Shown here: positions 4,741-38,909 of the stretch, piece by piece | Layout: each line of letters begins with the position of its first letter | Position numbering within the stretch: the stretch's first letter is position 1 | From: a virus | Taxonomy: Duplodnaviria; Caudoviricetes | Reading direction: 5' to 3' (one strand) | DNA: 64,000 nt | IMG/VR virus record: IMGVR_UViG_3300037400_001903 | Coordinates: 1 to 64,000 of that record | The notes under the pieces: model-generated | What the model was told of the DNA's origin: nothing | Database searches by the model: none | Seen by the model: the letters and a program-made list of their open reading frames with translations, nothing else | Position numbers and translations under genes: made by a program

Positions 4741-4769
4741 ATTTTATCATAATTCAAAAATACTATCAA
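4741..4769 (-). promoter_or_regulatory. sigmaA-type promoter for portal-scaffold-capsid genes
   Basis: TTGATA-17 nt-TAAAAT with TGn extended -10 on the - strand. Confidence 0.6.
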
Positions 4770-6327: not shown

Positions 6328-9300
6328 TATTTATTACCTCCTTGGCTGAATGGATTGAAGCCTCTATCTCTTTTAACATAAGATGTACCATCTTTATAAT
6401 GTTGAGTTTCTGTTCCCCAAATATCCTTTGATGTTCCATAATCAACAGCATTACGCATGTTGCTATAAATATCTGAAGGAGTTGAAGAACTATTATAGTA
6501 TCTTCTATTTTTAGAATATGTATTTGTATTCCAGTTATTAACATTATTGTAATAATGGTTTCTATATGTAGGCTTGTAACTAGATGAAGAATATAATGTA
6601 GGATAATTGCGTTGATACTTATACAAAGAATTAACATTATTGTTTTTAAAGCTTCCTTCAATAGGCTTAGCCTCAGCTTGCTGATTAACTACGTCATAAT
6701 ATAATTCATCTAAGTTAGGGAAGATTCTATCTTCATACACTAAAGCAGATTTGATTGAATTATATTCTTTTTGTGATAATGAATTATAGAAATCAGTTTG
6801 ATTAGTAAGCTTTTGAATCTGAGTTCTAAGAGAAACAGCAGCTATTGCAGATTTAATTTCTTTTAGGCTAACATGATTATTAACAGCTTCTCTTATAATA
6901 TTATATATTGTTGTAGGAGATGCTTTAATATGCATAGCATTTCTTAGTTTAGATTTTAAACCATCATAATAATCTTTGTTAAACTCAGAATTTAGATTTG
7001 TATTATAAGTATCTTTATTATTTAAAGACTTATATTCGTATACAATATTTAAAGCTGTGTTGTAATTTTTCCAATCAGACTTAAATGATTTTGAGTTTCC
7101 TAATTCTTCACGGAATGCATTTTCAAATCCATGACCAAGAGTTTCCATGAAGTTATCATCATTATATTCATAAGTATTCATTGTATTCATAAATGCATTA
7201 GCACCTTTAGAACCCATTGAATATCCTAAAGCTTTTCTAGATAAATTATCAAAGAAGTTTTCCCCTTGATTACCATAAGGATTTGTGAAGTTATTCTTTG
7301 GTATTAAAGCATCAGGTATCATAGTGAATGCAGGATTCAATTTGTTCCAAACATTTTGATTGAAATAATTTCCTAAAGCTTCACCAAATATATCCATAGC
7401 TTTTGAAGAACTATCATCATCCTTATGATTCTTTATTGCATTGATTAAAGGATTAGCTACTAAATTCTTAACACCATAATATGGATTCCATACAGTAGAT
7501 GTATTCATTACTGTATCATCTAATAATATAGAACTAAATAGCTCTATTGATGCATCATCAGATAATATAGAATCAATCATTTCTTTCTTATCTTCTTCGT
7601 CATCATCCATTAACCAAACTGGCAACATTTGTAATAGAACCTGAGCTATAACTAATGTACCAATAGAACCAACTTGTCTTCCTAACCATTTTAGTGTAGA
7701 AGAATCTGCTGTACCTGTAAAGATTTCTTTTGCAGCGAACGCTCCAGACCTTATCTCGTTTCTAGCAAACCTTACTAAAGCTAATGGGAATGTTGTGAAG
7801 ATGAATCCATGTGCACTTAAATCACCAGCTACACCAGGCATATCACCGTATGTACCATAAGTATTTGATACAATCATAGCAGCTATTCTAGAAGATGCTT
7901 TTGTTCCAGCGTTTGTACCAGAAATATCATTCTTCATATTATCAGCAATCTTTTGAAGTTTGTCTTTTAAATAATATGAGTTACCTAGTCTGCTATAAAT
8001 AGATTCAATTTTGCCACCATTATCATCTAATGTTTGTTTTAAACTTAAATACATTGCATATCTATTTGCTAAATGTTGAGCAGTAAATTGTTTACCAATA
8101 AAGTTTAGATAAGGGTTTTTAGATTGTGTGTATCTTTCACCTAGAGATACTTTATTAGATAGAGGGTCAACACCTGTTATATCCATAAACTCTCTTAAAG
8201 ATTCTGCACAATACTTACCATTACTTTGAAGGTATGCACCTATCTCTTTTGTAACTTGAGGTAAATATTTAACTGTCTCAAAATTACCAGAAGCTATAGA
8301 ACTACTTAAATCAAACATTGAGAAGTTTAACATTCTAGTAGGGAACTTAACTGGATTAGCCATAACAAGTTTAATAACTAAGTTGCCTATAGTACTTGTT
8401 ATTTTCTTTAATAATGATGGTTCACGAGTATAGAATAACTTTTGAGTATGCTTTGCTACTGTTGCATCCATGAAATATAAGTCACCACGTAGAGCATCAA
8501 GTGCAACATTTTGTTCATATGTTCCTTCTAATCCACCTTCACCATGAGTTAATCTAAAGATATAATCATCTGTTGCATAAGGTGATAAAGCTTTGAATTG
8601 AGACAAGTCTTTGTTATACTCTCTACCAAATTGGTCTGTTATAACTAAGCCATGTTCTTCAGCATACTTTGTTATTGATTCATATATTCCATCAGTCAAT
8701 GTTGTTTTCTCACCACGTTCAATTTGTATTGTAGTAATTTTTCCTACTATGTCCATCATAACTGTATAAGCTTTTACAGCATTATCTAATGTAGTATCCT
8801 GAGGATTTGCCATTGATTGAGATAATAAATTATGGAATGTTATATCACCATAGGATTCTTTCAAAGGCTCTAAGTATCTCTTATATATTTCGTTATATAA
8901 AGAAGCATACTTCGCACAAGATGTTAGAGCTTCAGGGTCTAGTTTAATATTAGACATATTTAAAGTATCTTTAACTTGAACTATAAAATTATTCAAGCCA
9001 GCATTCTCTAAACTTTCAGCATCATCACTACCATATTTATTGAGTTCTTCTACAGATATTTTAGAGCTTATTGCACTACAAGTTTCATCAAATGCAAGAG
9101 TATTAGACATAGCTCCATTGCTCTTCATCTCTTCTCTATAATTTAATAATGCGTGGAAATTACCAACTTGAGATGCTGCACTAACTATATTAGTTAATGC
9201 ATCAAACTCTGTATAGCATCCTTCAGGGTCTAGGCCAGATGTAGCACCTTTTATAGAGAATGGATTGTTTGTATACTTAGCAGTACCTGCAAATATTAAA

Positions 9301-12300
9301 GAGGAATTTTTTACACGGTCTTCTTTTGAACTACCTGTAGCTTTTGTAGGTAAGAAGAATCTTGCTCTATTAGGACAAGTTTGACCTGTAGCATTACAAT
9401 AAGCTTGCATAGCACTATATATTCTATTACATACAATATTTAATTGTTCATCAATAGGAGCGAATATTTTTCTATAGCTCTCTATATGATTTGATATAGT
9501 AGATAAGTCACCTTTACTTGTAACATTAAGTTCTTTTAAAATATTATCTTTTACTTTTTGATAATATGCTGCAGTTTTTTCTTTCAACTTTGTTTCAAGT
9601 TTATTATTACAGAAGGCTAAAGATGACATTAAGTTTTTAAGTTTAATATATCTATTATAGGATTCTTTTAATTCGGTGTTAGCATTTATTTTTCCTGCAA
9701 CAGTAAGGAATTCTGAGCCAAGTAATTGATTTCTATAACTCTTAACATTAGCTCTGTAAGCTACTACAGTTCTATCTGTATCAGCTTCTTTTATTTTACT
9801 AGAGCTTAATATATCTGTATGGAACTCTGCAATATCTTTAGATGCTTTTAATCTTTCAATTTCTAAATCAAAACGTGTCTTATCGAAAGTAGAAGAAGCA
9901 CCTCTTGTCTCATCAACTACATTGCCAAGAAGATAATTTAAGTCATCCATATTTACTAGAGTAGATATATCTTCGGCTTCAGGCTTGTTAATTGATTTAA
10001 CTAAATTGTTTAGTTTGTCAATGTTTTCATTTGCTAAGTTGTCTTGAGCTTCTGTATCAGTTCCTTGATTATAGAATTCTCTTAGAGTATCACTATCACT
10101 AATAGATTTTCTTAACTGGTCAATTACAGGTTCAAACATTTCATGACGTTTATAACCATATAAACCACTCTTGCTTACATCAGCATATTCACCATAAGTT
10201 CCTATAAATGGTTTAGGGTTAGCAGTGAACACTAAGCCTTTATCATCATCTAATCCGAAATATCTAGGAGCAATATCTGATATGATTTGGTCTCTATTAG
10301 TTGTTAATCTTCTAACTCTTTCTAGTCTATTCTTAGCAGTAGATAAGTAAGCTTTTAAATTAGTATTTAATTTATCAGCCCAATAAGCTGTACCAGTACC
10401 GACTTTTTGAGGGTCATTATATCTAGTAGAGAAATATTTACCAGTAGAATCACCATGTATAAATTCCTGCTTAGAAGAATCATTATATAAATCATTACCA
10501 GCATTTTCTGTGAACATATATTGTAAGTCTCTTGTAAGATTTGGATATTGATTAATAAGTCTTTGCTCTGGTGTAATTCTATCTTGCGTTGCTGCTACAT
10601 CTCCTACTTTAGGGTCAGCGATACCAGCAATGCGTGCTGTCTTTTTCATATAAGGAACACAATCTACATAAGACTGAGTATTAAATGAATTAGACTGATT
10701 ACCAGATTTACCATTCATTAAGTTCAATACACCATTTAATGTATAATCATTTATATTATTTTTAAATTGGTATAGATATTTTTTATCAACACCTAAAGTT
10801 TCTGCAAGTTCTGCTACAAATTTTTCTAGTGGGTAGTAAGCTTCTGAGGCATCTGTATAATTATAGCCATCAACTTTCTTTCCACCAGATAATATGTTTT
10901 GGTCACCAAGTAGGAAACTTTCAGGTCTTGTATAGTAATAAAGTAATGTATTGTTCTTATGAATTTCTTTTGCTTTAGTTTTTGACTCAAGCTTTTTAGT
11001 ACCATCTAATTCCTCAGCATCTGTTGGTTTAAGTGCTGGAGACATATCAGGCAATTTATCTATCATATATCTTACATAAGGGTCTTTAGATGTATATAGT
11101 TGTTTAACTTCATCATCAGACATTTTATCAAAGATATAATATAAAATATTTGAACCTGTGTTTCCAGATGTTAAAGTTCCATCTAGCATGTTCTTAACTA
11201 AATCATTAACATTAGGTAGTTCTTCTTTAATTTTAGCACAGTGTTCATATAGAAGTTTAGCTAATAAAGTTCTATATACTCTTACACCATTAGTTGAACT
11301 AGCCCAAGGAGTATTAGCTTTATCTAATAATCTGCTAATCTCATTCTCGTTTTTAGAATCATAATAGAATTTATAAGAACCATCAGCTTGTTTAACTTTA
11401 CTATACCACTTGCCATGTAACTTTATTAATGTATCAGGGTTTGTCCTATCATTAACAAAACTTATTACATCCATTGGCTTAGATTTAGTATCCTGCTTAT
11501 AGAATGAATTTGCTTCTGGACAATAAGCTCTACATTTTAACTTAGTAAACTTAGCTTGAGTAGGGTCTTTAATCTCATTAAAGTCCTCATCATAGTATAT
11601 AATTTCATAAGTATCTCCTGCACCAGCACTAAGTTTCTTTAGGTCAAATATGTTACTTGCAGATAAGAAATCTATTGAGTTAAAGAATTGAGACATTTTT
11701 TTAACTTGTTCTTTAGTAAGATTATCATTATATAAAGAAGTATCTACACCAAGAAGCTGCATCTTTTCTAATAACATATAACGTTCTGCAAAGTCTTTGT
11801 CCTTATGAAGTGTTGCAAAGTCTTGAAGAAGTTTTTCTCTACTAGATTTTAATTGCTCTAATAAAGCTTTTCTTTCCTCAAAGAATCTTTTTGCAGATTT
11901 ACTTGCATATAGAGAACCACCAAGTATTAAAGCTATCTCCTTTTCAGCATTTAGAGCTTCGTCTATTGCATCGTTTATTTTAGGTTGGAATTCATTTGCT
12001 AAAGGCCTGTGAAGATTTCTTATCTCATTCTTTCTTCTGTCATCAGCATAATCAAATTCAATAGCTAATTCATCCCAAGTAGGTTTATTCATTGCTATTT
12101 GTTCTGCATCAAATTTTTTTCTTCTCTTAGCATATTCAGCTGTTGCCTCTGCTTGCTTAACTCTAGCTTCATGCCTTTTAGTATTCCATTCTTTAAGTTG
12201 CTGTAATTGCTCTTTTGAAAGAGATTTTAATACATCTTTTGAATTAATTATTGCTTGAATTTCAGGGTCATACTGCTTATATAACTCATCTAGTTTTTTA

Positions 12301-15300
12301 ATTATATCTATTAAATCATAATTATTATGGAAGTCTCTAGTTATATTTTTAGATATAGTACCTTTTTCTGCACCAGAATCTACTATACCAATCTTGTTAC
12401 CTAATAGACTATGTGTTTCCATTAGGTGAAGTGATTTAATATCTTCTGGATTAACTAATAAGTTACCATCTGTATCAAAGATATTATTTATGGCGTTACC
12501 TTGTTTTGTAAAGACACCAATTATTTGAACGCCTCTACCTATTTCAAAATCACCAATCTTTAGTTTATCATGATAAGGACTTCTAATTGCAGTTTGTAAA
12601 TTAGTTAAATCTTCTTTAGAAAGATTCTTAAATTCACAAGATGATGAACGTGAACTACAAGCTACATGCCTGTTACTTACTTGCTCAAAAGTATCTGAAG
12701 CAAGATTCTGAACAAGACCACCAGCTATTAATATCTCAGCATCAAAGTAATTCTTTGAGTCATGACCATCAATATATTTTATCTTAGATACATCTGTAGC
12801 CTCTGAAAGTTGAGCTCTAAGTTTTGTAATCATCTTTCTAGATAAAGCAGTGTTACCAGATGTTGCAGTAAATCTTCTTGATGATAGTGTCTCATCCAAG
12901 TCTGTAGCTAATTTATATTTATAATCAAGAATCTCTTTTAAAGACATATTATCTATATTAGATAAATCATCAAGTTTCTTATCTATATTAAGAGTAGGAT
13001 TATTATATCTAGCATACTCAGCTAATTGTTTTAATTTTTTAGCCTCGCCAGATTTATCTACATCATCTAATATATTAGGAATTAGATTCTCATTAAAGAA
13101 TTTTTTAAATTCTTCACTACCTCTATATAATAACTCAGCACCTCTATATGCATCTATTATTACACGTACACCTTCATCAGTATCTTGTACAGATTGGAAA
13201 GCTATACCTAAGAATTCTTTTATACTAGAAGCTATTTCATCACCAAATGATTTTTGTATTGATGATATTGTCTTAGCTATAACAGCATCTTTAGCAACAC
13301 CTAAAGCTGTCTTTAGTCTAGCTCTAGTGTCTTTACTTAAATTAAACTGATTATAAGTAAACAATTCTGTAGCATCTTTAGTTTCTACATAACGCCCATC
13401 TAATAAATCTTTAAATTTTTTAGAAGCGAAACCTGTTGCTGAATCTTTGTATGATAATATTTCATCAATTAAGAACTTAGTATCAAGAGCAAGTCTTCTT
13501 ATAATTTCATCTGATTGTCTTTCACCTATAGCATATTCTGAATAATAAAGGTCACCATCTTTAAAGTCACTAGCTTTAAGTGTTGGATACTTTGAAGCAT
13601 CTTCTTTTTTGATAACTTTAATGTAAGAAGTTTTATCATCTAATTTAGCATCATTCATATATAAAGCTTTTGCTTTTAATTCATTATCATTTAAAGAATC
13701 ACCATTACGTAATTTTTCAAGTAGTTTTGCTATTGTTACACCAGTACTATTCTCTATTTCTTTTATAACATTAAACTCATTAACTGGGTCATAAGTAGAA
13801 TCATATAACATGTTTATTAAATCATCAGCTGCATCCCAAGTTTTATCAGTAGATTTCATTAAAGAATTACCATATTTTTGTAGAGATGCGTCTGGTTTAA
13901 TTAGCATTACTTTATCTGAGTCAAAGTCTCCACTATGATAAGCCATGAATATATCTGGAGCTAAGATAATATCGTTATAAGTATTATCAACTATTCTAAC
14001 TCTATAAGTGTGAACTATATTCTGACCTACTCCTGGAACTCTATATAGTGAAATATAAACATAATCTGTTGGGCCTAAGCCTAAAGATTCTTTATAAGAT
14101 TCTATAGAAGCTCCACCGAATAATTGTTCAAATCTATGTCTAGTTATGCCAATATCAGTAGACTTTAGTTGATACTGTGTGCCGTCTTCTAAAGTTATAT
14201 TTCTTCCAGGGATTATACCTGAAGCCATTACCCAATTTGTAGGAATATCTACAGATTCAGAGAATGTAGACATAGCATCATCTAATGCATCAAAGTAGAA
14301 GTTCTTTAGAATTCTTGGACCTTTATACTCTATGACAAATTCATTAGTACCAGGCTTATACGCATTTTCGAAGTCACCTGTCTTTAATCCTGTCATTAAA
14401 TCGAATAATAGATTCTTTGTATCATCATCTATATTTTTTAATTCAGCAGCTTTGAAAATCTTATCATAAACTTTTGATACAACAAAAGATTGATAATCTT
14501 TTTCAAGTCTTCTCTTTTCTGATTCAAAGCTTTCCTTAGAAACAGAATCATCTATAAAGTTAATGAAGCTTGTCTCATCATAAGTATTAACAGGTTTCCT
14601 GTCTTTGTATTTAGTATTAAGTAGATATTCTATTTCGTTGATAGGCATCTTTAAGAAATCTTCTTGAGTGAAGTTATCATTCTCTTTTAGTTGCTGCTTC
14701 TCTTTTCTGATTGAATTAATCATGTCATTCATTAACTCAACGCCTGTTTTAAACTTATCTTCTGTTAATTCAGTACCATCATTATTTATGAATAATAATA
14801 CTTTATCTCTAACTGCATTTAAGTTTGATGAGCCATCATCATTAACATGTAATAACCAATTTAAGAAATCAGATTGATATTCAAATATTAATTCATGTTC
14901 AAGATTGTAATCTTTCTTATAAAGATATTGAATTTCATCTGAATTTATTACAGCGTTTCTCTGAGTTACTAATTCATTAAGAAGCTTATCAGTCATAGAT
15001 GTACCATATTTAGAATATAATTCTCTATAATCTTTAGCATCTTTATCTAAAGCATCTAATTTCCAAATATCATCAAATGATTTTAATGAACCGTCTTCTT
15101 GCTTAATAGATGTTAATAACTTAAACAATTCAGTTTTATCTATATCATTAGCATCAAGACTTTTAAGTAAGCTATCTATATCTTTATATAGTGAGGCTTT
15201 AATTTTCTCAACATCTACCAAGTTATTCATTTCATATAAGAAATACTTGTAGGAGAAAATAGCATCATCCATAGCTAAGTGTGATGTAGATTCATCACCT

Positions 15301-18300
15301 AACTGTCTTCTTAAATTTGCTAGAGATACAGAAGCTTTATTAATATCTGCATTAGGTGTTATAACTTTTGCAATATCTTCTTGTGTATCAATATGTTCAA
15401 CAGCATCAGCTAATTTTCCGATTGAACCAAATTGCTTTTCTATTTTCTTGATATCTGTAGCTCTAGAGTTATGTCCAAGAAGTACAAACTCTTTAAGACC
15501 TAATTGAGATAAAGCATGGCTAATAGCTTCATCTATAGCTTTTAGTACTTCAGTATTTGCATCAGAACTATTTATAGAGAAGATGTATTCATTATTATGT
15601 TTTGTTTTAGTCCTTGTATTATATTTTAAACTGTCTTCATAATTCCTGTAAGCTGAAGCTGCATCCTTATCTGTAGAAGCTAGAGTTTCATAACCAGCTA
15701 TTTCACTATCATCATATTTAATTAAGATTCTATATCTAAGAATATCTTCATCTTTAGTTACAGATAAATCTTTAGAACCTTTAGCTACTGCGAAAGATAT
15801 CTCATAAATTTTATCCTCTAGATTTTTACCGAAATAATTTTCAAGGTCGAAATTTACTATAGCTTTACCATCTATAAGCTCAGCAACATTTATTGTTTTT
15901 GCTACACTACCATCATCATTATGAAGGTCAATCATACCTTCTTGAAGAGAAGTTCTAGCGTAATTCTCTTGAAGTTTATTTAAGTAATCTTCATTTCCTA
16001 ATAAGAAGAATTGTAAATCTTTACCTCTATTACCTGATAATATTTTATATTGGATAATATTAGCAACTGCTTGTTTTCTTTCTTCTGGGTCAGATATATT
16101 TGAAACAACTCTTTTCAAATCTAAAGCATGTAATTCACCATCTTCAGAATCTAAATTATCAATAGCTTTAGTAACATTTATATCATCACTTAAATTATCT
16201 AAGGATTCTTTAAGAACATCAGTAATGCTATTCTTGAAATCGAGAATGCTTGATGGAACAGAACTCTCATTTATAAAGTAAGTGAAAGCATCTATAGTAT
16301 CAGCAACCATTTTGTTTGCTTTCTTTTGAAGAGCATCATATTCTTTGCTAGTTAATGTACCTTTCTTTAAATCTATATGAGATAAAGCTTGGTCTTTCAA
16401 ACTTAAGAAATCTGCAGCAGAATGTAAATTCTCTACTGTCTCTAATGTAGAATGAAGCAATCTATCTACAGCGTAGTTTAAAGATTCAACCATAGCTTCT
16501 TTAGTAGCATCAGGCATATTAGCAAATGTTTTAGATACCTCATCCATTATTAGTGTTTTAGAATTCTGCATATATAATGTTCTGATTTCTGAACGAGTCA
16601 TATATGAACCAAGTTGTTTAGCAACTATATCTGCAGCACTATCTGATATAACATCAAAGTCTAATTCATTGTTTCTTTCAAAATAATCTGCAATACAATT
16701 TCTGTAAATCATATTTCTTAAATAAGAAACATTACCAGACTTTTTATCTAGAGACATTATCTTTATATTCTCACCATAAGAAGAAGCATTTAAAGACATG
16801 ACATTCTTAGAGGCATTAAATAAGAAAGCCTTCTTGTAATTTAATTTCTCATCTAATATACCTTTTAAGAATAATTGACGACCTAATGATATAGCTTCTC
16901 TACGACCATAGATATTATCACCAACATTATCTATATGCCATACATCATTCTCATCTTGATAAGCGATAGTATATCTATTATATGAAGAAGACATATCTGT
17001 ACCTGTAGTATTGAAATAAATCTTCAAAGCTAATTCCATAGCTGTCTTTGAATCTATATCTACAAGCGAGTTATCTTTTAATATAGTTCCTGGTATAGAT
17101 TTAGCTAAAGAAGCAATACTTGTAAGCATCTCGCCTAATGCTAGTTTATTTTCCATGTTAGCTACATACACAGAACCTGGATGGTCAACAGTTGGTGTAG
17201 TATAAATATTTAACATTTCTGATAATAATTTAGAGGTTTCACCATTTAATGTTGCAGCAGAAAGTTTCTTGAAGAAAGTATCTTGTTCTTTCTTATACTT
17301 AAGTCTTTCACTTCTAAATAATATTTCATTAGCGAACTCTTCCATAGCATCATTCTTAATAAATGCTTGGCCTGCAGCATTGATTTGTGTAGTTTCTGTT
17401 CCTCTAGAATAAGTAACTCTTTGAGCAGAATAATCACGAACAAGGTCATTTATTGAGCCTTTAATATTAGTTAAATCATTCATTTGGAAAGGGTTAAACA
17501 TAACTTTTTTATCATGCATAACATATAAGCTACCACTAAATTCTTTACCATTTATATCCCAAACTATTTTAATAGAGTTTGCTGTCTCTACATATATGGT
17601 TTTTATTGTTGCAGTACCATTGTTTAAACTTACTAATAGCTTTAATAAACTTTCATCAGGTCTAGATATTGGTGTAATTAATATTTTATCAGGTAGTTTC
17701 GTACCAGTATAGTGCTCAAAAGAATCACCACAATAATCTACTATATCTTTATCAGCTATTTTTAAATCATCTAATGTTATATAAGAATATTCCTTTAAGC
17801 CTTTAGTAGAAACATTAATAGCATTAATTGCATCTTTAGACACTACATAATTTTCTTTTGTTATATCTTTAAAGCTATTATTTTCATACTTATCAATTAA
17901 AGATAACTTCTCTTTTAATTGAGGTGTTACCATTCCAAGCTTTTCTAATGCATCAAATTGTTCTCTAGTAAGAACTCTTATATCATCAATACTAATGAAG
18001 GCTTTACCTGTAGATGAATCATATCTAATCATAGAAGCAATATCTGCATAAGGATTATCTTTTTGTAAAATGAATATGTCATCCCTAGAGTTATAAGTTG
18101 CAGGTGTAAGCATCTTTAATAGACCAACTATTTTCTTAACTGTTTCTGCATTATAACCAGAATCTAAAGCAATCTTAGTATAGTCAAGTTTATCAACTAT
18201 AGCCTTGCCATCATAATCAATACCAAAGTTTCTGTATTCACCCATGTTTTTCTCAACAGCCTCAGCTATTTTATTTAATTGGTCTTTATCAAATACTATA

Positions 18301-21300
18301 TCTATTTCTTCTTTAGTGAATCCTCTTGAGGCTAAAGCATCTATAGTCCTTTGGTTCTCTGATTTTAAATAAGACTTTATAATACTCTCAAGATTTTTTG
18401 TTATATCCTCTTCAGATGAATAACCTTTAATATTTAAAGAAGTATTACTAATGAAAGATTTGAAATCTTCTATAGTATCAAATCTATCAAAGTTCTGACC
18501 TTTAAGGAAATCTAAGAAGTTTGCACCACCAGCACTTAGTCCTTCAACTTTAATAGTATCAAAATTATAAGTTTGTTCTGGTAGCTGAGCAATTTCTAAT
18601 TCATTAGGTAATACAAACATACTTCTTAAATTTATATTACCATTCTTATCAGAGAAATTTTTAATTATATAAGGTAATGTCCAATTATCTGCTTTAACAT
18701 TTGTTATTACAACCTTATGCATTTTACCAGGTAAATCTTCATTAATGAATTCATATAATGAAGAAGTCTTTTTTGTGAAGTTTTTATATTCCTCATCTGA
18801 CATTGTGACTGAGTATAATGAAGTATCACTCTCAGTTTTAACATAAGCATTAGCTGCTTTTATTAAATATAATAATGTTATAGCATTACCAAATGCACCA
18901 TCATCATTCATGTCAGAGAATAATTGTTTATAAGAATAACTATTAAAATATTTTCTACTAGTTTCATTATCTATCTTAGATGCAGCTTTACCTAACTTTA
19001 ACATACAAGTTATAATTTCTTTAGCAGCATCTAAAGATATAGCATCTTTAGTTAAAGTAATACTAAACATTTTATTAATAGCATCTAAGTTTAAAGAATC
19101 AATATCAGCATCAGATACTAATACACCATATCTATCCTTAACAGCAAGTTTAACATCTAGCTTCTCTTTATTATTTAAAAAGACTAGAGAGTTATCATCT
19201 GTAATAATTCTTGAAAGTTGCATTAGTTTATTATAATTTTCTAGAGTTAAATTAAATTCTAAACCTCTTGAAGAATCTGATGTGAAACTAATTCCAGGTT
19301 TATCTAAACTTCTACCTGATTCTAACATAGAATTTACTTCTACTTCAGAATAACCTATAGAATACATCATGTTCTTAAAATCATTTAACTCAGCTGTATT
19401 GTTTCTATCAAATGTTAGAACACTTGTTTCATTATCTGTTTGCAATCTACATAAAGCTCTAAGAGTATCTATGTTTCTAGCATTGCCTAATTTCTTTTCT
19501 AGGTTAGCTATTATAGTTTTACTACCAACAGATAATGCTTCTTTAGAACTTTCAACCTCTAATTCACGGACTAAATTATGAAATTCTTTTGTTTCTAATT
19601 GAGATAAGTTAACAATTATTAAATCTTTTTTGTTATAACGAACAGTATCTTTTAAAAGCTTGCCGTATGTAATTAAAGAATTAATTAGTTCATCCTTAAG
19701 TAGATTAGCATCTATATCTTCTGAACGTAAAGCTAAGAAGGTATCAACGAAATCAGTTATTTCCTTTTCGTTTGTTAAATAATCGTCTAAGTCTAGATTT
19801 CTTAGAGTTTGGCCCAAAGATGTTTGTAAAGGATTTTCTTTTACTAGCTCCAACTGACCTTCTGTAAAAGCTATCAAGCCCTCAAGTCCACTGAAGAAAT
19901 CATTTCCAACTAATTTGTCTTTAATCAATAACTGTTGAACTTCTTTATCTTCTAATACTTTCTTGATAGCACTGTCGAGATTTTTAAGGTCAGTTGAAGA
20001 AACGTCATTGCTATCGCCAGATTTTTTAGCAGCTTGAAGTTTTCCAGAAAGTTCTTTGATTTCACCAGTAGTTTTATAATACTCTAAGTATTTCTTTGTA
20101 TTAGATACAGCTTCGTCATTTCCTGTTGTGTCTATCTCATCATAAGAAATTCCTAGCTTATCAAATATATTTATAAGTTGTATTCTACTTATTGCATCTA
20201 TTTTAGAAGAAGCAAGTGTACATAAATATGTAGCAATTAATTTTCTAGCTCCTTCTTTATATTCTGCAGAATCTAAGAAATGAGTGTTCTCACTGTTATT
20301 GAAAGCAGCAACACCATTTTCTATATTAGCTTTGATTGTTTCAAAATCTTTTAAATAAGCCTTAGCAGTTTTACCTTGACAAATTTGAAGATTATTTCTT
20401 ACGAATATATCTATTAATAAGTCACAACCAGATTTAATCTTGTCTGCTTCTTTAGTCATGTTTAAGCAGAATAAAGCTCTCAATGCTGTAGCTATTGAGT
20501 CTGCTTGTTTTAATTGACCAAAGATTGTATTTTCAAAACAGCCAACTTGTACATATATAGTTTGCACTTTACCTGTTTTATCTAGATACTGCACTTCATT
20601 GAATAATCCTGCAATAGCTAAAGCTCTCATAGCATTATCAAAATTAGGGTTTAACATATCTTGTAAGTAATCATTATGATAAGCCTCATTCATTTTGAAA
20701 ACATTGGAATCATTTAATAAAGTTCTTGCAGCTGCTTCATTAGGTTCAATACCTAAGATTTCTCCAGCAACTTTTTGGAAGTCTTTGTTTATAACTAAGT
20801 CTTCATATTCTGGAACCAATTTACCGTTAGAATCATTAGCTATATGGTCTATTATTACATACTTATCAAAAGAGTCTGAGAACTCTGAACTATTAACATT
20901 ATTATAATCATCAGGTCTAGCTTCTGAATAGAAGTTCATCTCTTTAAGAATAGACTCATCTAGTGATGCTTTCAATCCTGCCATACTTAGTACATCATTT
21001 AACTGTTGATGTAAAGAAATTTTACCACCCTTCTTATCATCAACTGTTTTAATATGAATATGTTTTTGATAAGAAGCATCATCAAAGTTTTCGCCCACAG
21101 ATTTAAAAGTATTGTTGATAGCATCATATTGTTCTTTAGTCAAAGTAAGAACTTTATCTGGGGTATCTAATTTAATACCGACAGAACTTAATACAGATTT
21201 AATTCTTTCGTTTGACATAACAAAGTCTTTATCTATTGTATAAGTAGTTATAGTTGTATTAGTTCCTTGGAATTCTTTAGCATTAGATTCAAACTCATTC

Positions 21301-23939
21301 TTAGCTCTTTCGTAAGCTTGTCTAATACTAAACTCACCTTTTAATACAGAGATATTAGTATTATAAAGAGTGTTGTACATCTTTTGATACATCATTAAAT
21401 CATAAGAATTTCTTGCTATAATTTTTTCCACAGCTGATTCTTTGATATTAGCTAAAACTATAGCTCTGATACCACCAGCAGATTTTTCGTCTTTAGTTAA
21501 TCTAGATAAAGTTTTTTCATCTATTCCTAATACATCAGTAGAAACATCTGTTGATACTTCACATAGGAATGTTAAAGCTTTTATTGTAGCAGAAATTTCT
21601 GATTCACCTTTATCTCCAACACGAAGAGCCATAGCTGGTTCTATAATATTAGTTAATATTTTTTGAGCAGCTTCTGGATTCTTCTCAACCATAGAAGCAT
21701 AACGCCCTCTTATTGTATTAATAGCTGTATCATAAGTTTTACTTAAGTTATCTACAGATGTAATTGCTGCTCTAATATATTCGTCATCATCTAGGTGAGG
21801 GCCAATTAACTTACCTTCATCAGTTCTTCCGAAGAACTTGAATCCCATATCTTGCTTAGCAATATATAAGTTTGTAAGAATAAATTGTGGGTTTAAAGTT
21901 ATATTCTTCATGTTCTCCCAGAAGTTACCATCTTTACTAGATAATGTAGCAGTAGTAGTTTGAGTTACAATATTTTCTATTATATCTGCAACTGTATCAA
22001 TAGATTTAGTGTAAACTGATTTACCTATACTTCTTAAAGATTCAACACCAATTTGGTTTACAAAATTATTTAAAGTTTCATTAGATACTTTGCTACTTAA
22101 ATCACTAATCTTATCTTGAATAGCTTTTTCATAAGCACCTCTTTGTCTAAAGAAAGATGTAACACCACTATCTCCAACAGCTCTTAGTGCAAATGATGTA
22201 AGAGTATTAATACCTATATTAGCTAAACCTCTACCAATAATCTCGCCTTCTGATAATTTTTCATCCTCACTAAGCATTTGATTTTGTATTGAAAGTTTAG
22301 TCATTGTTGAGACACCATCACGTAATGCAAGTGTAGCAGCTGTTACAAATCTATTAGCCATAGCATGTTCAGCAAGCTTAGGTACAATAGAAGTAACGCT
22401 ACCTCCTCTTAATCCTGAGTAGGTACGAGTAGCAAATGCTGCACCTTTTAATACTGCTGTTCCAGCTTGAGCAAATCCTTTAGAAACACCACTTGCCATA
22501 TTTGCAGTAGCATTTGCAGCTGTTTTAGCTGCATTATTTATAGCTCCAGTTAATCCTGCAGAAGCAATCATACCAACGATTGTACCTGTAGCATTAAGTA
22601 TTCCTCTAGCCCAGTCGTCACCTTCGCCCCATTGGAATCCTTGGAAGTCTTTTGTATTAACACCACCAAAAAGAATGTTGTTATTTTTAAAAGCATTCCA
22701 ATCTAACATTATATCATCATTACCACACCAGTGTCCTACTAATCCTACAACTTGTGCACCGAAATCAAATAGGCTTGTGAATACAGAGAAGAATGAACCA
22801 AGGAAAGAATCAACAGCTTCTTGGAAAGCACCGTTACCTAGCCAACCATGAGTTGTTACTCTATCAACAACTTTGTTTCCATCCTTATCTGTTTCATAAT
22901 AAATCTTACATGTATTGTTACCAGTACCTGATGAACCTTCAGCTGCATAAAGCTTACCATCAGTACTATAGTAATAATCGTAAGTACCATCATTATCTAT
23001 ATCAATGAATGGGTTAAACATATTTATGTCAACGAATCCACCTCTATATAATTTAATAAATTGTTCTTCTGATTCAAAGTAACTTGAGATTGCTGCGAAC
23101 TGGTCAGCAAATAGAGTCTTAATATCTTCAGCAGTTACTTCTCCACCTGAAGCCCATACTACTGCATTCTCTTTTAGTCTATTTAAAGAAGCAGCTTCGT
23201 ACCAAGATTCAGCTTGAAATTTTTCTTCAGCCATAGAAAGAACATCAGACAAGAATGTTGATGAGTTTAAAGGATTTGAATAATCACCTTTCTTAGCTTT
23301 GTTATACCAATATAAAGAAGAATCAAAGTCATAGCCTTGAGCTTTAAGAATATCTTTACCATAAGCTTTGTATAAGAAATCAGCATATCCAATGTTACCT
23401 GCTTTATATTCAGCATGTAACTTTTTTACTTTCTCTTCAGCTAGTAAAAGCTTTGCTGTTGTTTCAAAACCTTTTGGAACGAAACCTGTTTTATTATAGT
23501 ACTCTGTAAAAGATTCTCTATCAGATAAACCACAAGCTCTCTTTAAATCAGTATACTTTGTAGTACCTAATGAGTCCCTATATAAAGCTTCAACTGAATC
23601 ATCCAATGGTTCTCCAGTAGGAACGTAAGATTCTACAGAACCTTCAGGTGCATAGGTTGTACCTTTATCTCCACCTAATATAGTTGAAATATCTGAAGAA
23701 GAATATTCATCTAGGTTAGGTCGTATGACTCCTGTACTTGCATTTAAAAAACCATCTTGCTGTGCCTTTTGCTCGTTGTCATCCAACTTAATGTCGAACT
23801 TATTTGAGCCAGTACTAGGAGATGGCGTTAAAAGAGTATCGTCAATTTCTTTATTAGAACCTGCGATATCGTCATTAACATTTTGAGTTAATTCATTAAA
23901 AATATTATTGTTCTTATAATCTGTGTTTTGTCCTTGCAT
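6327..23939 (-). CDS. Giant (5,870 aa) probable virion protein containing a two-barrel RNA polymerase core and a DEDDh 3'-5' exonuclease
   Basis: beta'-like barrel LKSTDIGITRHRFEQLF...LYRVP...IILAPDIFMAYHSGDFDSDKVML (D3338/3340/3342); beta-like GNK(3849)...GAEK(3859)GTISK; DEDDh FDLE / GHNSRATD / HLAMDDA; hydrophobic N- and C-terminal regions. Placed in the head operon. Confidence 0.8.
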   Translation of the reverse strand: MQGQNTDYKNNNIFNELTQNVNDDIAGSNKEIDDTLLTPSPSTGSNKFDIKLDDNEQKAQQDGFLNASTGVIRPNLDEYSSSDISTILGGDKGTTYAPEGSVESYVPTGEPLDDSVEALYRDSLGTTKYTDLKRACGLSDRESFTEYYNKTGFVPKGFETTAKLLLAEEKVKKLHAEYKAGNIGYADFLYKAYGKDILKAQGYDFDSSLYWYNKAKKGDYSNPLNSSTFLSDVLSMAEEKFQAESWYEAASLNRLKENAVVWASGGEVTAEDIKTLFADQFAAISSYFESEEQFIKLYRGGFVDINMFNPFIDIDNDGTYDYYYSTDGKLYAAEGSSGTGNNTCKIYYETDKDGNKVVDRVTTHGWLGNGAFQEAVDSFLGSFFSVFTSLFDFGAQVVGLVGHWCGNDDIMLDWNAFKNNNILFGGVNTKDFQGFQWGEGDDWARGILNATGTIVGMIASAGLTGAINNAAKTAANATANMASGVSKGFAQAGTAVLKGAAFATRTYSGLRGGSVTSIVPKLAEHAMANRFVTAATLALRDGVSTMTKLSIQNQMLSEDEKLSEGEIIGRGLANIGINTLTSFALRAVGDSGVTSFFRQRGAYEKAIQDKISDLSSKVSNETLNNFVNQIGVESLRSIGKSVYTKSIDTVADIIENIVTQTTTATLSSKDGNFWENMKNITLNPQFILTNLYIAKQDMGFKFFGRTDEGKLIGPHLDDDEYIRAAITSVDNLSKTYDTAINTIRGRYASMVEKNPEAAQKILTNIIEPAMALRVGDKGESEISATIKALTFLCEVSTDVSTDVLGIDEKTLSRLTKDEKSAGGIRAIVLANIKESAVEKIIARNSYDLMMYQKMYNTLYNTNISVLKGEFSIRQAYERAKNEFESNAKEFQGTNTTITTYTIDKDFVMSNERIKSVLSSVGIKLDTPDKVLTLTKEQYDAINNTFKSVGENFDDASYQKHIHIKTVDDKKGGKISLHQQLNDVLSMAGLKASLDESILKEMNFYSEARPDDYNNVNSSEFSDSFDKYVIIDHIANDSNGKLVPEYEDLVINKDFQKVAGEILGIEPNEAAARTLLNDSNVFKMNEAYHNDYLQDMLNPNFDNAMRALAIAGLFNEVQYLDKTGKVQTIYVQVGCFENTIFGQLKQADSIATALRALFCLNMTKEADKIKSGCDLLIDIFVRNNLQICQGKTAKAYLKDFETIKANIENGVAAFNNSENTHFLDSAEYKEGARKLIATYLCTLASSKIDAISRIQLINIFDKLGISYDEIDTTGNDEAVSNTKKYLEYYKTTGEIKELSGKLQAAKKSGDSNDVSSTDLKNLDSAIKKVLEDKEVQQLLIKDKLVGNDFFSGLEGLIAFTEGQLELVKENPLQTSLGQTLRNLDLDDYLTNEKEITDFVDTFLALRSEDIDANLLKDELINSLITYGKLLKDTVRYNKKDLIIVNLSQLETKEFHNLVRELEVESSKEALSVGSKTIIANLEKKLGNARNIDTLRALCRLQTDNETSVLTFDRNNTAELNDFKNMMYSIGYSEVEVNSMLESGRSLDKPGISFTSDSSRGLEFNLTLENYNKLMQLSRIITDDNSLVFLNNKEKLDVKLAVKDRYGVLVSDADIDSLNLDAINKMFSITLTKDAISLDAAKEIITCMLKLGKAASKIDNETSRKYFNSYSYKQLFSDMNDDGAFGNAITLLYLIKAANAYVKTESDTSLYSVTMSDEEYKNFTKKTSSLYEFINEDLPGKMHKVVITNVKADNWTLPYIIKNFSDKNGNINLRSMFVLPNELEIAQLPEQTYNFDTIKVEGLSAGGANFLDFLKGQNFDRFDTIEDFKSFISNTSLNIKGYSSEEDITKNLESIIKSYLKSENQRTIDALASRGFTKEEIDIVFDKDQLNKIAEAVEKNMGEYRNFGIDYDGKAIVDKLDYTKIALDSGYNAETVKKIVGLLKMLTPATYNSRDDIFILQKDNPYADIASMIRYDSSTGKAFISIDDIRVLTREQFDALEKLGMVTPQLKEKLSLIDKYENNSFKDITKENYVVSKDAINAINVSTKGLKEYSYITLDDLKIADKDIVDYCGDSFEHYTGTKLPDKILITPISRPDESLLKLLVSLNNGTATIKTIYVETANSIKIVWDINGKEFSGSLYVMHDKKVMFNPFQMNDLTNIKGSINDLVRDYSAQRVTYSRGTETTQINAAGQAFIKNDAMEEFANEILFRSERLKYKKEQDTFFKKLSAATLNGETSKLLSEMLNIYTTPTVDHPGSVYVANMENKLALGEMLTSIASLAKSIPGTILKDNSLVDIDSKTAMELALKIYFNTTGTDMSSSYNRYTIAYQDENDVWHIDNVGDNIYGRREAISLGRQLFLKGILDEKLNYKKAFLFNASKNVMSLNASSYGENIKIMSLDKKSGNVSYLRNMIYRNCIADYFERNNELDFDVISDSAADIVAKQLGSYMTRSEIRTLYMQNSKTLIMDEVSKTFANMPDATKEAMVESLNYAVDRLLHSTLETVENLHSAADFLSLKDQALSHIDLKKGTLTSKEYDALQKKANKMVADTIDAFTYFINESSVPSSILDFKNSITDVLKESLDNLSDDINVTKAIDNLDSEDGELHALDLKRVVSNISDPEERKQAVANIIQYKILSGNRGKDLQFFLLGNEDYLNKLQENYARTSLQEGMIDLHNDDGSVAKTINVAELIDGKAIVNFDLENYFGKNLEDKIYEISFAVAKGSKDLSVTKDEDILRYRILIKYDDSEIAGYETLASTDKDAASAYRNYEDSLKYNTRTKTKHNNEYIFSINSSDANTEVLKAIDEAISHALSQLGLKEFVLLGHNSRATDIKKIEKQFGSIGKLADAVEHIDTQEDIAKVITPNADINKASVSLANLRRQLGDESTSHLAMDDAIFSYKYFLYEMNNLVDVEKIKASLYKDIDSLLKSLDANDIDKTELFKLLTSIKQEDGSLKSFDDIWKLDALDKDAKDYRELYSKYGTSMTDKLLNELVTQRNAVINSDEIQYLYKKDYNLEHELIFEYQSDFLNWLLHVNDDGSSNLNAVRDKVLLFINNDGTELTEDKFKTGVELMNDMINSIRKEKQQLKENDNFTQEDFLKMPINEIEYLLNTKYKDRKPVNTYDETSFINFIDDSVSKESFESEKRRLEKDYQSFVVSKVYDKIFKAAELKNIDDDTKNLLFDLMTGLKTGDFENAYKPGTNEFVIEYKGPRILKNFYFDALDDAMSTFSESVDIPTNWVMASGIIPGRNITLEDGTQYQLKSTDIGITRHRFEQLFGGASIESYKESLGLGPTDYVYISLYRVPGVGQNIVHTYRVRIVDNTYNDIILAPDIFMAYHSGDFDSDKVMLIKPDASLQKYGNSLMKSTDKTWDAADDLINMLYDSTYDPVNEFNVIKEIENSTGVTIAKLLEKLRNGDSLNDNELKAKALYMNDAKLDDKTSYIKVIKKEDASKYPTLKASDFKDGDLYYSEYAIGERQSDEIIRRLALDTKFLIDEILSYKDSATGFASKKFKDLLDGRYVETKDATELFTYNQFNLSKDTRARLKTALGVAKDAVIAKTISSIQKSFGDEIASSIKEFLGIAFQSVQDTDEGVRVIIDAYRGAELLYRGSEEFKKFFNENLIPNILDDVDKSGEAKKLKQLAEYARYNNPTLNIDKKLDDLSNIDNMSLKEILDYKYKLATDLDETLSSRRFTATSGNTALSRKMITKLRAQLSEATDVSKIKYIDGHDSKNYFDAEILIAGGLVQNLASDTFEQVSNRHVACSSRSSSCEFKNLSKEDLTNLQTAIRSPYHDKLKIGDFEIGRGVQIIGVFTKQGNAINNIFDTDGNLLVNPEDIKSLHLMETHSLLGNKIGIVDSGAEKGTISKNITRDFHNNYDLIDIIKKLDELYKQYDPEIQAIINSKDVLKSLSKEQLQQLKEWNTKRHEARVKQAEATAEYAKRRKKFDAEQIAMNKPTWDELAIEFDYADDRRKNEIRNLHRPLANEFQPKINDAIDEALNAEKEIALILGGSLYASKSAKRFFEERKALLEQLKSSREKLLQDFATLHKDKDFAERYMLLEKMQLLGVDTSLYNDNLTKEQVKKMSQFFNSIDFLSASNIFDLKKLSAGAGDTYEIIYYDEDFNEIKDPTQAKFTKLKCRAYCPEANSFYKQDTKSKPMDVISFVNDRTNPDTLIKLHGKWYSKVKQADGSYKFYYDSKNENEISRLLDKANTPWASSTNGVRVYRTLLAKLLYEHCAKIKEELPNVNDLVKNMLDGTLTSGNTGSNILYYIFDKMSDDEVKQLYTSKDPYVRYMIDKLPDMSPALKPTDAEELDGTKKLESKTKAKEIHKNNTLLYYYTRPESFLLGDQNILSGGKKVDGYNYTDASEAYYPLEKFVAELAETLGVDKKYLYQFKNNINDYTLNGVLNLMNGKSGNQSNSFNTQSYVDCVPYMKKTARIAGIADPKVGDVAATQDRITPEQRLINQYPNLTRDLQYMFTENAGNDLYNDSSKQEFIHGDSTGKYFSTRYNDPQKVGTGTAYWADKLNTNLKAYLSTAKNRLERVRRLTTNRDQIISDIAPRYFGLDDDKGLVFTANPKPFIGTYGEYADVSKSGLYGYKRHEMFEPVIDQLRKSISDSDTLREFYNQGTDTEAQDNLANENIDKLNNLVKSINKPEAEDISTLVNMDDLNYLLGNVVDETRGASSTFDKTRFDLEIERLKASKDIAEFHTDILSSSKIKEADTDRTVVAYRANVKSYRNQLLGSEFLTVAGKINANTELKESYNRYIKLKNLMSSLAFCNNKLETKLKEKTAAYYQKVKDNILKELNVTSKGDLSTISNHIESYRKIFAPIDEQLNIVCNRIYSAMQAYCNATGQTCPNRARFFLPTKATGSSKEDRVKNSSLIFAGTAKYTNNPFSIKGATSGLDPEGCYTEFDALTNIVSAASQVGNFHALLNYREEMKSNGAMSNTLAFDETCSAISSKISVEELNKYGSDDAESLENAGLNNFIVQVKDTLNMSNIKLDPEALTSCAKYASLYNEIYKRYLEPLKESYGDITFHNLLSQSMANPQDTTLDNAVKAYTVMMDIVGKITTIQIERGEKTTLTDGIYESITKYAEEHGLVITDQFGREYNKDLSQFKALSPYATDDYIFRLTHGEGGLEGTYEQNVALDALRGDLYFMDATVAKHTQKLFYTREPSLLKKITSTIGNLVIKLVMANPVKFPTRMLNFSMFDLSSSIASGNFETVKYLPQVTKEIGAYLQSNGKYCAESLREFMDITGVDPLSNKVSLGERYTQSKNPYLNFIGKQFTAQHLANRYAMYLSLKQTLDDNGGKIESIYSRLGNSYYLKDKLQKIADNMKNDISGTNAGTKASSRIAAMIVSNTYGTYGDMPGVAGDLSAHGFIFTTFPLALVRFARNEIRSGAFAAKEIFTGTADSSTLKWLGRQVGSIGTLVIAQVLLQMLPVWLMDDDEEDKKEMIDSILSDDASIELFSSILLDDTVMNTSTVWNPYYGVKNLVANPLINAIKNHKDDDSSSKAMDIFGEALGNYFNQNVWNKLNPAFTMIPDALIPKNNFTNPYGNQGENFFDNLSRKALGYSMGSKGANAFMNTMNTYEYNDDNFMETLGHGFENAFREELGNSKSFKSDWKNYNTALNIVYEYKSLNNKDTYNTNLNSEFNKDYYDGLKSKLRNAMHIKASPTTIYNIIREAVNNHVSLKEIKSAIAAVSLRTQIQKLTNQTDFYNSLSQKEYNSIKSALVYEDRIFPNLDELYYDVVNQQAEAKPIEGSFKNNNVNSLYKYQRNYPTLYSSSSYKPTYRNHYYNNVNNWNTNTYSKNRRYYNSSSTPSDIYSNMRNAVDYGTSKDIWGTETQHYKDGTSYVKRDRGFNPFSQGGNK

Positions 23940-24071: not shown

Positions 24072-24146
24072 TGGTTGGAGAGGATGGATTTGAACCATCG
24101 ACCTCCTGGGTATGAGCCAAGCGAGCTACCACTGCTCTACTCTCCA
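24072..24146 (-). tRNA. tRNA-Met (CAT), initiator-like, CCA encoded
   Basis: 75 nt cloverleaf: TGGAGAG/CTCTCCA acceptor, GAGC/GCTC D stem, CTTGG-CTCATAC-CCAGG anticodon arm, GATGG-TTCAAAT-CCATC T arm, ACCA end. Confidence 0.93.
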
Positions 24147-37628: not shown

Positions 37629-38909
37629 ATGAAATTATTTGAAGCTGCTAAATCTGTTAGTTTAACAGATATTTTTACTGAGATGTGTGGTGGAACTATT
37701 CCTAATCGTAGGAAGAATTCCCTTACATCTTGTCCTATTTGTGGAGCAGGGACTAACACTCCTTGCTTCGGCCTTTATGGCAAAACAAAAAACATTCTTG
37801 ATAAATATAAATGTTTCTCTTGTGGTGCACAAGGAGATTCTATATCTTTAGTAAAGAATGTTTATGGTTTAGTTGATGATGTTGAAGCTGCTAAAGAAAT
37901 TTGCAGATATTTTAATGTTGAATATGAAGAGACTAAAGCCTCTGTTCATAATGATAAGTATGATAAGTATGTTAGAACTTATAATTATATTGCTAAACTT
38001 TTTAATGTTTTGTATCGTAGTGATTTTAATCCTGATAAAAATTATTTTGAGAACAGAGGTTTATCTACTGAACTTATTGATAAATATCAGTTAGGCTATT
38101 GTCCTAATATGCTTATCACTAAAGAGAATAAACATATCTCTTTACAAGATTTAATTCTTCGTATGGGTTTAACTGTTGAAGAAGGTCTTGTTAATTCTTA
38201 TGGTGAATCTGTTTTCTCTGGTAGATACATCTTCCCTATTAGAAATTCTAAAGGTGATGTTATTGCTTTTAGTGGTAGAACTTTAGATGCTAATGCTCCT
38301 AAGTATGTTAATACTTGTGAGACAGAGTTCTTTAAGAAGTCTTTTGCTTTATTCAATTATGATAGAGCTAAAGCTTATCCTACAGTCTATGTTGTTGAGG
38401 GTTATATGGATGCCTTATCTTTAATTGAATCAGGAATACCTAATGTTGTTGCTGCTATGGGTACAGCTTTTACTGAAAGTCATATATCAGCACTTAAAGG
38501 TAAGCAGATTGTTCTTGCTCTTGACCATGATGGTGCTGGTATGACTCATATCTTTAATATCATAACTCAGTTTAGAGATATCTATTTTAAAGTTATGTAT
38601 ACTCCACAAGAGTATAAAGATTTTAATGAGATGCTTATGGCTAAGCAAGACATTAAATCTTATTTATCTAAGTATGAGTTAAAAGCTGGACCAGAGTTTG
38701 TCATAAGACTTCTTACACATACTCAGGATATGAGTAAGTTAGAATCTCGTTCAGATATTTGGAAGACTATCGCATCTTTGATAGGTTCTACTAACTATTC
38801 TTATCAAAAGAAGTATCCACTTAATACTTTATATACTCCTGTTGAGATAGATTATTTCTGGAAGATGTATTCTAAATTTATAAAAAGAAATAGAAAGGAG
38901 GTGAAATAG
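37629..38909 (+). CDS. dnaG: DnaG-type DNA primase
   Basis: Zn finger CPIC...KCFSCGAQGD, FSGRYIFPI..G.VIAFSGR, KYVNT, TOPRIM VVEGYMDALS and ALDHDGAG. Confidence 0.92.
   Translation: MKLFEAAKSVSLTDIFTEMCGGTIPNRRKNSLTSCPICGAGTNTPCFGLYGKTKNILDKYKCFSCGAQGDSISLVKNVYGLVDDVEAAKEICRYFNVEYEETKASVHNDKYDKYVRTYNYIAKLFNVLYRSDFNPDKNYFENRGLSTELIDKYQLGYCPNMLITKENKHISLQDLILRMGLTVEEGLVNSYGESVFSGRYIFPIRNSKGDVIAFSGRTLDANAPKYVNTCETEFFKKSFALFNYDRAKAYPTVYVVEGYMDALSLIESGIPNVVAAMGTAFTESHISALKGKQIVLALDHDGAGMTHIFNIITQFRDIYFKVMYTPQEYKDFNEMLMAKQDIKSYLSKYELKAGPEFVIRLLTHTQDMSKLESRSDIWKTIASLIGSTNYSYQKKYPLNTLYTPVEIDYFWKMYSKFIKRNRKEVK

Follow-up and report, generated by a model that had tools for sequence, protein, structure and literature searches.

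A probable DEDDh exonuclease domain within a giant phage protein that also carries a polymerase-like barrel

We analyzed a 64,000-nucleotide stretch of DNA (the window) that forms the first 64 kilobases of a 77,211-base linear virus record in IMG/VR (IMGVR_UViG_3300037400_001903; estimated completeness 71%). The minus strand of the window contains one giant open reading frame (ORF) of 5,870 amino acids (aa), whose product we call P0001. We found that this giant protein very probably contains, to judge from its sequence, an intact 3'-5' exonuclease of the DnaQ/RNase T type, located at aa 2688-2905. A barrel like that of the RNA polymerase (RNAP) beta-prime subunit follows in the same chain, and we infer that the chain carries a very divergent RNAP of the two-barrel type. 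Our best overall explanation, which we hold at just short of an even chance, is that the exonuclease is built into an early polymerase injected with the phage DNA and acts there on 3' ends, probably those of RNA.

Sequence evidence for an exonuclease domain

The three motifs of the DEDDh exonucleases are present in the giant protein. Direct translation gave ExoI (VNFDLE), ExoII (LLGHNSRATD) and ExoIII (SHLAMDDA) as they had been read in the first-pass annotation of this DNA, and the numbers assigned there to the five catalytic residues (D2698, E2700, D2829, H2887 and D2892) were right; residue n of the giant ORF begins at base 23939-3(n-1). The D-x-E of ExoI is preceded by hydrophobic residues and stands where the predicted first strand ends. 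The spacing in ExoIII is H-x4-D, the mark of the DEDDh subgroup. The histidine of this motif is the general base and separates DEDDh from DEDDy enzymes. The span originally assigned to the domain, 15235-15870, covers it but does not fall on codon boundaries, and was reset (Table 1).

We found that RNase_T (PF00929) was the top Pfam family on four overlapping slices of the protein. Three slices scored 22.8-23.4 bits (E 1e-4 to 1.5e-4) and the fourth 21.5 bits (E 3.6e-4). These E-values are library-wide. Because RNase_T had been named in advance, the probability for this single family is far lower. The match runs from helix A through ExoIII (positions 50-163 of the 164 in the profile). It probably covers only this part of the profile because of an insertion of about 50 aa that follows strand 3 and makes the distance between ExoI and ExoII 131 aa.

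A language-model search of the Atlas with the domain gave a similar picture. Recognition was 3518, and all 30 feature hits fell within a single set of clusters that had no Pfam family in common. Three of the 30, scoring 0.94 each, carried the labels 'Exonuclease', 'Oligoribonuclease family protein' and 'hypothetical protein'. In the three nearest clusters that do have a Pfam family (scores 0.92-0.93), PF00929 was present in 82%, 19% and 74% of the members. As a negative control we used another conserved part of the giant protein (aa 2230-2420), for which recognition was 1613, the best score was 0.88, and no coherent family emerged.

The family of P0001 is rare: the collections searched contained two sequence clusters of it, and only two relatives of P0001 were found. 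P0002 (5,917 aa) came from the near-length range of a collection of 5.8 billion proteins and is 92% identical in the region searched. P0003 (5,771 aa), which is 43% identical in the exonuclease region, was the sole match among 1.84 billion representative proteins. The collection of 5.8 billion contained no shorter relatives, and the exonuclease domain alone had no match in it at E up to 10. No relative of the giant protein was found by tblastn of a phage collection, or with peptide patterns in IMG/VR and the metagenomes of the Joint Genome Institute (JGI); one DNA pattern recovered the contig that encodes P0003 (Ga0247611_10000524).

We found that P0002 and P0003 both keep all five catalytic residues unchanged, and the domain is 43-45% identical between P0001 and P0003. 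The first-pass annotation had named variation of the acidic residues in homologs as a sign against a nuclease; none of them varied. The domain as a whole is conserved to a near-average degree (45% identity to P0003, compared with a mean of 47% over the whole protein). Within ExoI, D2698, L2699, E2700 and N2701 are the same in all three giants. Several stretches around the catalytic residues, of kinds common to DEDDh enzymes, are also invariant in P0003: IYEI.FA (strand 2), YRILIKYDD (strand 3), GHN, IDT, SL.NL and DDAIF.

After the motifs had been seen, we composed a loose DEDDh pattern (hydrophobic-DxE, 80-200 aa, hydrophobic-HN-x3-5-D, 40-90 aa, HxAxxD[AIVL]). Every one of the three known giants had a single match to it, always at the homologous site, and none of 20,000 shuffles of the 5,870-aa sequence had any. 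The part comprising ExoII and ExoIII alone matched in 5 of 20,000 shuffles.

The domain resembles known PF00929 enzymes (E. coli DnaQ/epsilon, RNase T, oligoribonuclease (Orn), exonuclease ExoI and ExoX) in the order of its motifs (D-x-E, (H)N...D, H-x4-D). It is also like them in strand 2 ('IxEI'), strand 3, the succession helix A-strand 4-HN, the 'DT' after helix B and the 'SL..L' before ExoIII. Pairwise local alignments placed different parts of the domain in register with different enzymes: ExoI and strands 2 and 3 of P0003 with the N-terminus of Orn, helix A-strand 4-HN of P0001 with RNase T, and ExoIII of P0003 with E. coli ExoI (z 4.5); ExoIII of Orn was likewise aligned. The phage domain differs from the PF00929 enzymes in having no detectable pairwise similarity to them, a score below the family cut-off and the 50-aa insertion, and in having DLE followed by N-Y/F rather than T-G. 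Furthermore, those enzymes are small free proteins or polymerase subunits, whereas the phage domain lies inside a very long chain.

Some of the motif variants are those of one enzyme in particular. The ExoII aspartate stands four residues past HN (N-x4-D; N-x6-D in P0003), in contrast to the usual N-x3-D (HN-A-x-F-D). ExoII of E. coli Orn likewise has N-x4-D (GNSIGQD). Together, the variants DLE, N-x4-D and HxAMDD fit Orn (GNSIGQD, HQAMDD) better than they fit DnaQ, which is a weak hint that the substrates may be RNA.

Several results weigh against this identification. The PF00929 scores were below the family's own gathering cut-off of 24 bits, and the match vanished on long targets, both in a 1,200-aa slice and in a six-frame search of the whole record. 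We attribute this loss to the HMMER filters and the length correction of a borderline hit; it shows that the sequence signal is weak. The ExoI region is outside the Pfam match. Models from AlphaFold2 were too poor for use, with a confidence (pLDDT) of 38.9 for aa 2670-2920 as a single sequence and 41.5 for aa 2600-3000 with a three-sequence alignment. Foldseek against PDB with the first of these models returned noise (best E 0.11, unrelated folds), and among PDB sequences phmmer with the domain as query gave no relevant match. A profile built from two sequences of the whole giant protein had no match in PDB, the crAss polymerase structure included. With hhalign, comparison to five E. coli DEDDh domains yielded a probability of 5%. 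In PHROGs and NCBIfam, neither the domain nor the whole protein matched an exonuclease or polymerase family. Conservation was judged on three sequences only, and the chance expectation that all five catalytic residues are kept at 45% identity is approximately 2%. The resemblance to Orn depends on few residues.

In a low-confidence model, the elements follow one another as three strands, helix, strand and helices, an order that fits an RNase H-like fold. The profile of the five E. coli DEDDh sequences was too shallow to discriminate, in hhalign and in hmmsearch, and reversed-sequence controls scored alike.

Weighing these results together, we consider it highly likely that aa 2688-2905 form a true DEDDh-fold domain, and likely that the domain is catalytically active. 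The earlier description of a complete DEDDh exonuclease is supported by the profile match, the language-model features, the motif context and the conservation, but not by a confident fold.

The giant protein and its polymerase-like barrel

We found a beta-prime-like Asp barrel downstream of the exonuclease. It begins approximately 390 residues beyond the exonuclease, and its catalytic motif lies approximately 430 residues beyond. Around NADFDGD, local alignment puts the barrel of P0001 in register with E. coli RpoC (z 3.1, 13 of 1000 shuffles), and likewise that of P0003 (z 6.2, 0 of 1000 shuffles). This barrel is the most conserved stretch near the exonuclease (61% identity to P0003); it had no Pfam match. 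The catalytic motif is DFDSD in P0001 and, by alignment consensus, in P0002; P0003 has the canonical DFDGD. The polymerase gp66 of phi14:2, a crAss-like phage, has DFDID, and a residue other than glycine at the fourth position has been linked to an unusual, self-inhibited conformation of the active site (10.1101/2020.03.07.982082).

The second, beta-like barrel, which would bear lysine, was not located. Two invariant motifs, GRQLFLKGILD upstream of the exonuclease and GNKIGIVDSGAEKGTIS downstream of the Asp barrel, recall by eye the RNAP beta-barrel signature GDKMAGRHGNKGVIS. In Smith-Waterman alignments with E. coli RpoB, z was about 1 or less for both. Pfam gave nothing in either region, and the Atlas gave nothing for the upstream candidate, the only one searched there. 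In gp66, the beta-like barrel ends approximately 270 residues before DFDID, and the connector is 140 residues long (10.1101/2020.03.07.982082). By that spacing the beta-like barrel might come right after the exonuclease. Since this barrel was located on neither side, the exonuclease could lie between the two barrels. The first-pass annotation had placed the exonuclease upstream of both; the present results support this for the Asp barrel.

We infer that the giant protein is a virion or ejection protein that is packaged and ejected with the DNA, because of the position of its gene in the operon, the Gly/Ala-rich hydrophobic segments near both of its ends, and the analogy with gp66 and with gp96 of Thermus phage P23-45. 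The gene is co-oriented with, and directly upstream of, the genes for the terminase, portal and major head protein. Apart from the exonuclease slices, no part of the whole chain was recognized by Pfam or PHROGs.

The protein is like gp66 (2,180 aa; 10.1101/2020.03.07.982082) in being a giant single chain with a non-Gly DFDxD motif (DFDSD here, DFDID in gp66), in its extreme divergence, and in a presumptive role as an injected early polymerase. Approximately 1,600 residues of gp66 are without recognizable homologs (10.1101/2020.03.07.982082). The replication block of this phage also resembles that of crAss-like phages (PMC7886860): both have a DnaG-type primase, SNF2 and DnaB-type helicases and an AAA ATPase. 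In contrast to gp66, the giant protein is 2.7 times longer, its sequence matches no PDB chain, its second barrel was not located, and the terminase of the phage is not crAss-like.

P23-45 gp96 (5,002 aa) is a virion two-barrel RNAP fused to the tape-measure protein, and coupling of DNA entry to pre-early transcription has been proposed for it (PMC10770324). Like gp96, the protein described here would be a virion protein with a length of about 5,000 residues, in which a two-barrel RNAP is joined to long parts that are not enzymatic. It differs from gp96 in that the polymerase is N-terminal there, and the gene is the tape-measure gene, whereas here the catalytic motif is in mid-chain (aa 3338 of 5,870) and the gene precedes the terminase gene. 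The giant gene, upstream of the terminase gene and away from any tail genes, does not occupy the tape-measure position in a tail module, and no tape-measure match was found in Pfam or PHROGs.

One segment of the giant protein is hypervariable. Residues 2020-2170 (window 17430-17882) are 3% identical between P0001 and P0003, compared with 47% overall. Most of this segment is missing from P0003, and it looks like a hot spot for insertions and deletions.

Possible roles of the exonuclease

We suggest the following mechanism. The domain would be a complete DEDDh exonuclease, RNase H-like in fold and using two metals for catalysis. D2698, E2700, D2829 and D2892 would be the ligands of these metals, with H2887 as the general base. 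The domain would share its chain with a divergent two-barrel-type RNAP, and the giant protein would be packaged, ejected with the DNA, and make the first transcripts. The exonuclease would then act on 3' ends within the injected early transcription complex. A link between the exonuclease and the function of the polymerase has, in our judgment, a slightly better than even chance of being real.

Within this mechanism, the most probable job of the exonuclease would be to trim RNA 3' ends, either to rescue backtracked or arrested complexes without a Gre/TFIIS partner or to mature early transcripts. RNA trimming in particular is proposed tentatively, at clearly less than even confidence. It is favored because few polymerases would be delivered per genome, so that an arrested complex would be costly; because the enzyme has no evident partner for cleavage of the Gre/TFIIS type; because the flavor of the motifs is Orn-like; and because DEDDh nucleases accompany viral RNA polymerases elsewhere.

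Such pairings are found in RNA viruses. The nsp14 ExoN of coronaviruses is a DEDDh 3'-5' exonuclease that works with the viral RNA polymerase. The arenavirus NP likewise has a DEDDh exonuclease that works with the viral RNA polymerase (see 10.1101/2023.04.12.536665). The likeness to the phage protein is that of a DEDDh 3'-5' exonuclease beside a viral enzyme that synthesizes RNA. However, coronaviruses and arenaviruses are RNA viruses with RNA-dependent polymerases of the right-hand type, and their nuclease is in a separate protein or domain context, whereas the protein described here belongs to a DNA phage. There is no homology of nsp14 or NP to the phage domain beyond the DEDDh superfamily. 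In eukaryotes, two-barrel polymerases of RNA interference are paired with DEDDh nucleases. A broader proposal, which would echo that pairing, is that the domain is the built-in 3'-end exonuclease of a two-barrel RNAP, replaces Gre/TFIIS cleavage of misincorporated or backtracked RNA, and represents a recurrent, undescribed architecture in injected phage enzymes. We regard this broader proposal as doubtful.

The main alternative to an action on RNA, in our view somewhat unlikely, is that the exonuclease processes the DNA ends of the injected genome. It might chew back 3' ends and thereby expose the 5' tails of terminal repeats, which could anneal to form a circle or a concatemer, or it might create a single-stranded template. 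Chew-back of terminal repeats by a 3'-5' exonuclease is known to lead to single-strand annealing, for example with the exonuclease of the poxvirus DNA polymerase. The domain sits in a protein that would enter with the DNA, PF00929 includes the DNA exonucleases DnaQ, ExoI and ExoX, and the ExoIII region of P0003 aligns best with E. coli ExoI. A single-stranded template would also suit an enzyme such as gp66, which in vitro transcribes DNA efficiently when it is single-stranded or denatured, but not when it is double-stranded (10.1101/2020.03.07.982082). However, by its polarity a 3'-5' exonuclease removes the template strand for inward transcription and exposes only that for outward transcription. 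Given this loss of the template strand, chew-back of terminal repeats for annealing is the more coherent DNA role. The record is linear and estimated to be 71% complete, so its ends need not be those of the genome.

It is also conceivable, although the chance seems slim, that there is no working exonuclease. The motifs, like the weak profile match, could have arisen by chance in another fold, or the region could be a decayed DEDD domain that serves as a structural spacer. This would fit the sub-cut-off Pfam score that is lost on long targets, the want of a confident fold, the lack of a match in PDB, PHROGs and NCBIfam, the insertion, the non-canonical spacing in ExoII and the small number of sequences (three). 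In contrast, three independent lines agree on an exonuclease: the Pfam profile, the language-model features with their control, and the motifs, which occurred in 0 of 20,000 shuffles. Furthermore, the five catalytic residues are kept at 43% identity, which would be needless in a pure spacer.

An equally slender possibility is that the domain is an injected nuclease for host takeover or counter-defence, which would be next to the polymerase for shared delivery only. On entry it would degrade host RNAs, small guide nucleic acids or oligonucleotide products that are linear. Unrelated enzymatic modules are common in giant ejected proteins, and the proteins in the nearest Atlas clusters are viral and free-standing, with the names 'oligoribonuclease family' and 'exonuclease'. 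However, a single tethered copy per virion would make a poor bulk nuclease, and the main known second messengers of defence systems are cyclic and have no free 3' end.

Very improbable is a further reading, in which the two-barrel core, like that of PolD, belongs to a DNA polymerase or to a replicase resembling a primase, and the DEDDh domain proofreads for it. A two-barrel DNA polymerase is among the three functions that the first-pass annotation listed without a preference. Proofreading in DNA polymerases is usually the task of DEDDh domains, and PolD is an example of DNA polymerization by a two-barrel core (PMC7281927). However, this phage has a complete family A polymerase that includes a 3'-5' exonuclease, together with a primase, helicases and an AAA ATPase; the giant gene is in the operon of head genes and outside the replication block; and the motif of the Asp barrel is that of RNAP beta-prime.

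Genome context and significance

The features discussed, with those of the surrounding genome, are listed in Table 1. The G+C content of the window is 29-36%.

Table 1. Features of the window (positions in the 64,000-nucleotide window; residues of the giant ORF)
Feature	Position	Strand	Residues	Remark
Giant ORF (P0001)	6327-23939	minus		one ORF, 5,870 aa
Putative DEDDh (DnaQ/RNase T-like) 3'-5' exonuclease domain	15225-15878	minus	2688-2905	
ExoI, IVNFDLEN (D2698, E2700)	15837-15860	minus	2694-2701	direct translation
Insertion of about 50 aa	15555-15707	minus	2745-2795	between strand 3 (YRILIKYDD) and helix A
ExoII, VLLGHNSRATD (H2823, N2824, D2829)	15453-15485	minus	2819-2829	direct translation
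ExoIII, SHLAMDDA (H2887, D2892)	15261-15284	minus	2886-2893	direct translation
Beta-prime-like Asp barrel, LYRVPGVGQN ... AYHSGDFDSDKVMLIKP	13893-14048	minus	3298-3349	
Catalytic motif of the Asp barrel, DFDSD	13914-13928		3338-3342	
Beta-barrel candidate, GRQLFLKGILD	16851-16883		2353-2363	invariant motif
Beta-barrel candidate, GNKIGIVDSGAEKGTIS	12351-12401		3847-3863	invariant motif
Large terminase	4747-6327	minus		co-oriented, 3' of giant ORF
Portal	2221-4143	minus		co-oriented, 3' of giant ORF
Major head protein	2-1510	minus		co-oriented, 3' of giant ORF
tRNA-Met (CAT)	24072-24146	minus		immediately upstream of giant ORF start
Family A DNA polymerase with its own DEDDy 3'-5' exonuclease domain	52181-54154	minus		PF00476, PF01612
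PD-(D/E)XK nuclease	51241-52188			replication block
AAA_24 ATPase	50323-51147			replication block
SNF2-type helicase	54362-55891			replication block
Primase	37629-38909			replication gene
Primase-helicase	47553-49454			replication gene

Because the family A DNA polymerase has its own exonuclease, the DEDDh domain would not be needed for replication, and we rejected as unlikely a role for it as the replicative proofreader.

The phage appears, by its terminase marker, to belong to an undescribed lineage. The phages closest in terminase sequence were Roseobacter CRP-603 (the best, at 29%), CRP-207 and CRP-2, Bacillus PK1 and Arthrobacter Colucci (26-29% identity). Membership in the crAss family was rejected, since the terminase is not crAss-like despite the crAss-type polymerase motif.

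Several other genes of the window are of separate interest. A GroEL-type chaperonin is encoded on the minus strand at 41072-42613 (Cpn60_TCP1, E 8e-35). Two adjacent genes on the minus strand (57193-58167 and 58176-59132) gave weak radical SAM matches, with E of 7e-6 and 5e-5, neither of which reaches the Pfam cut-off; the pair lies between the replication genes and a gene for a 1,077-aa tail-type protein (60589-63822). The plus strand encodes an AAA ATPase (33255-34802) and a CobT/vWA-like protein (35677-37614), whose PHROGs labels are 'porphyrin biosynthesis' and 'aerobic cobaltochelatase CobT subunit'. These two look like the CobS/CobT-like pair present in many large phages.

The putative exonuclease belongs to a known superfamily of nucleases and the polymerase to a known class; their combination and its context are without description in the literature that we searched. 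The word 'exonuclease' is absent from the paper on crAss-like genomics (PMC7886860), the gp66 preprint (10.1101/2020.03.07.982082) and the P23-45 paper (PMC10770324), the last of which also makes no mention of nuclease, proofreading or cleavage. Full-text literature searches pairing virion RNA polymerase with exonuclease or DEDDh returned nothing relevant.

The exonuclease is one of only two recognizable catalytic modules in a protein of 5,870 residues that is blank in the whole-chain annotation libraries. Two-barrel RNAPs are thought to handle errors and arrests at the active site of the polymerase, with help from cleavage factors. If our interpretation is true, a DnaQ-type exonuclease built into a two-barrel RNAP would be a different solution to errors and arrests, and one that is easy to test, as both activities are on one chain. 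It would also bear on the way in which injected phage polymerases begin to transcribe DNA as it enters the cell; the crAss-like enzyme, for its part, is efficient in vitro on single-stranded DNA only.

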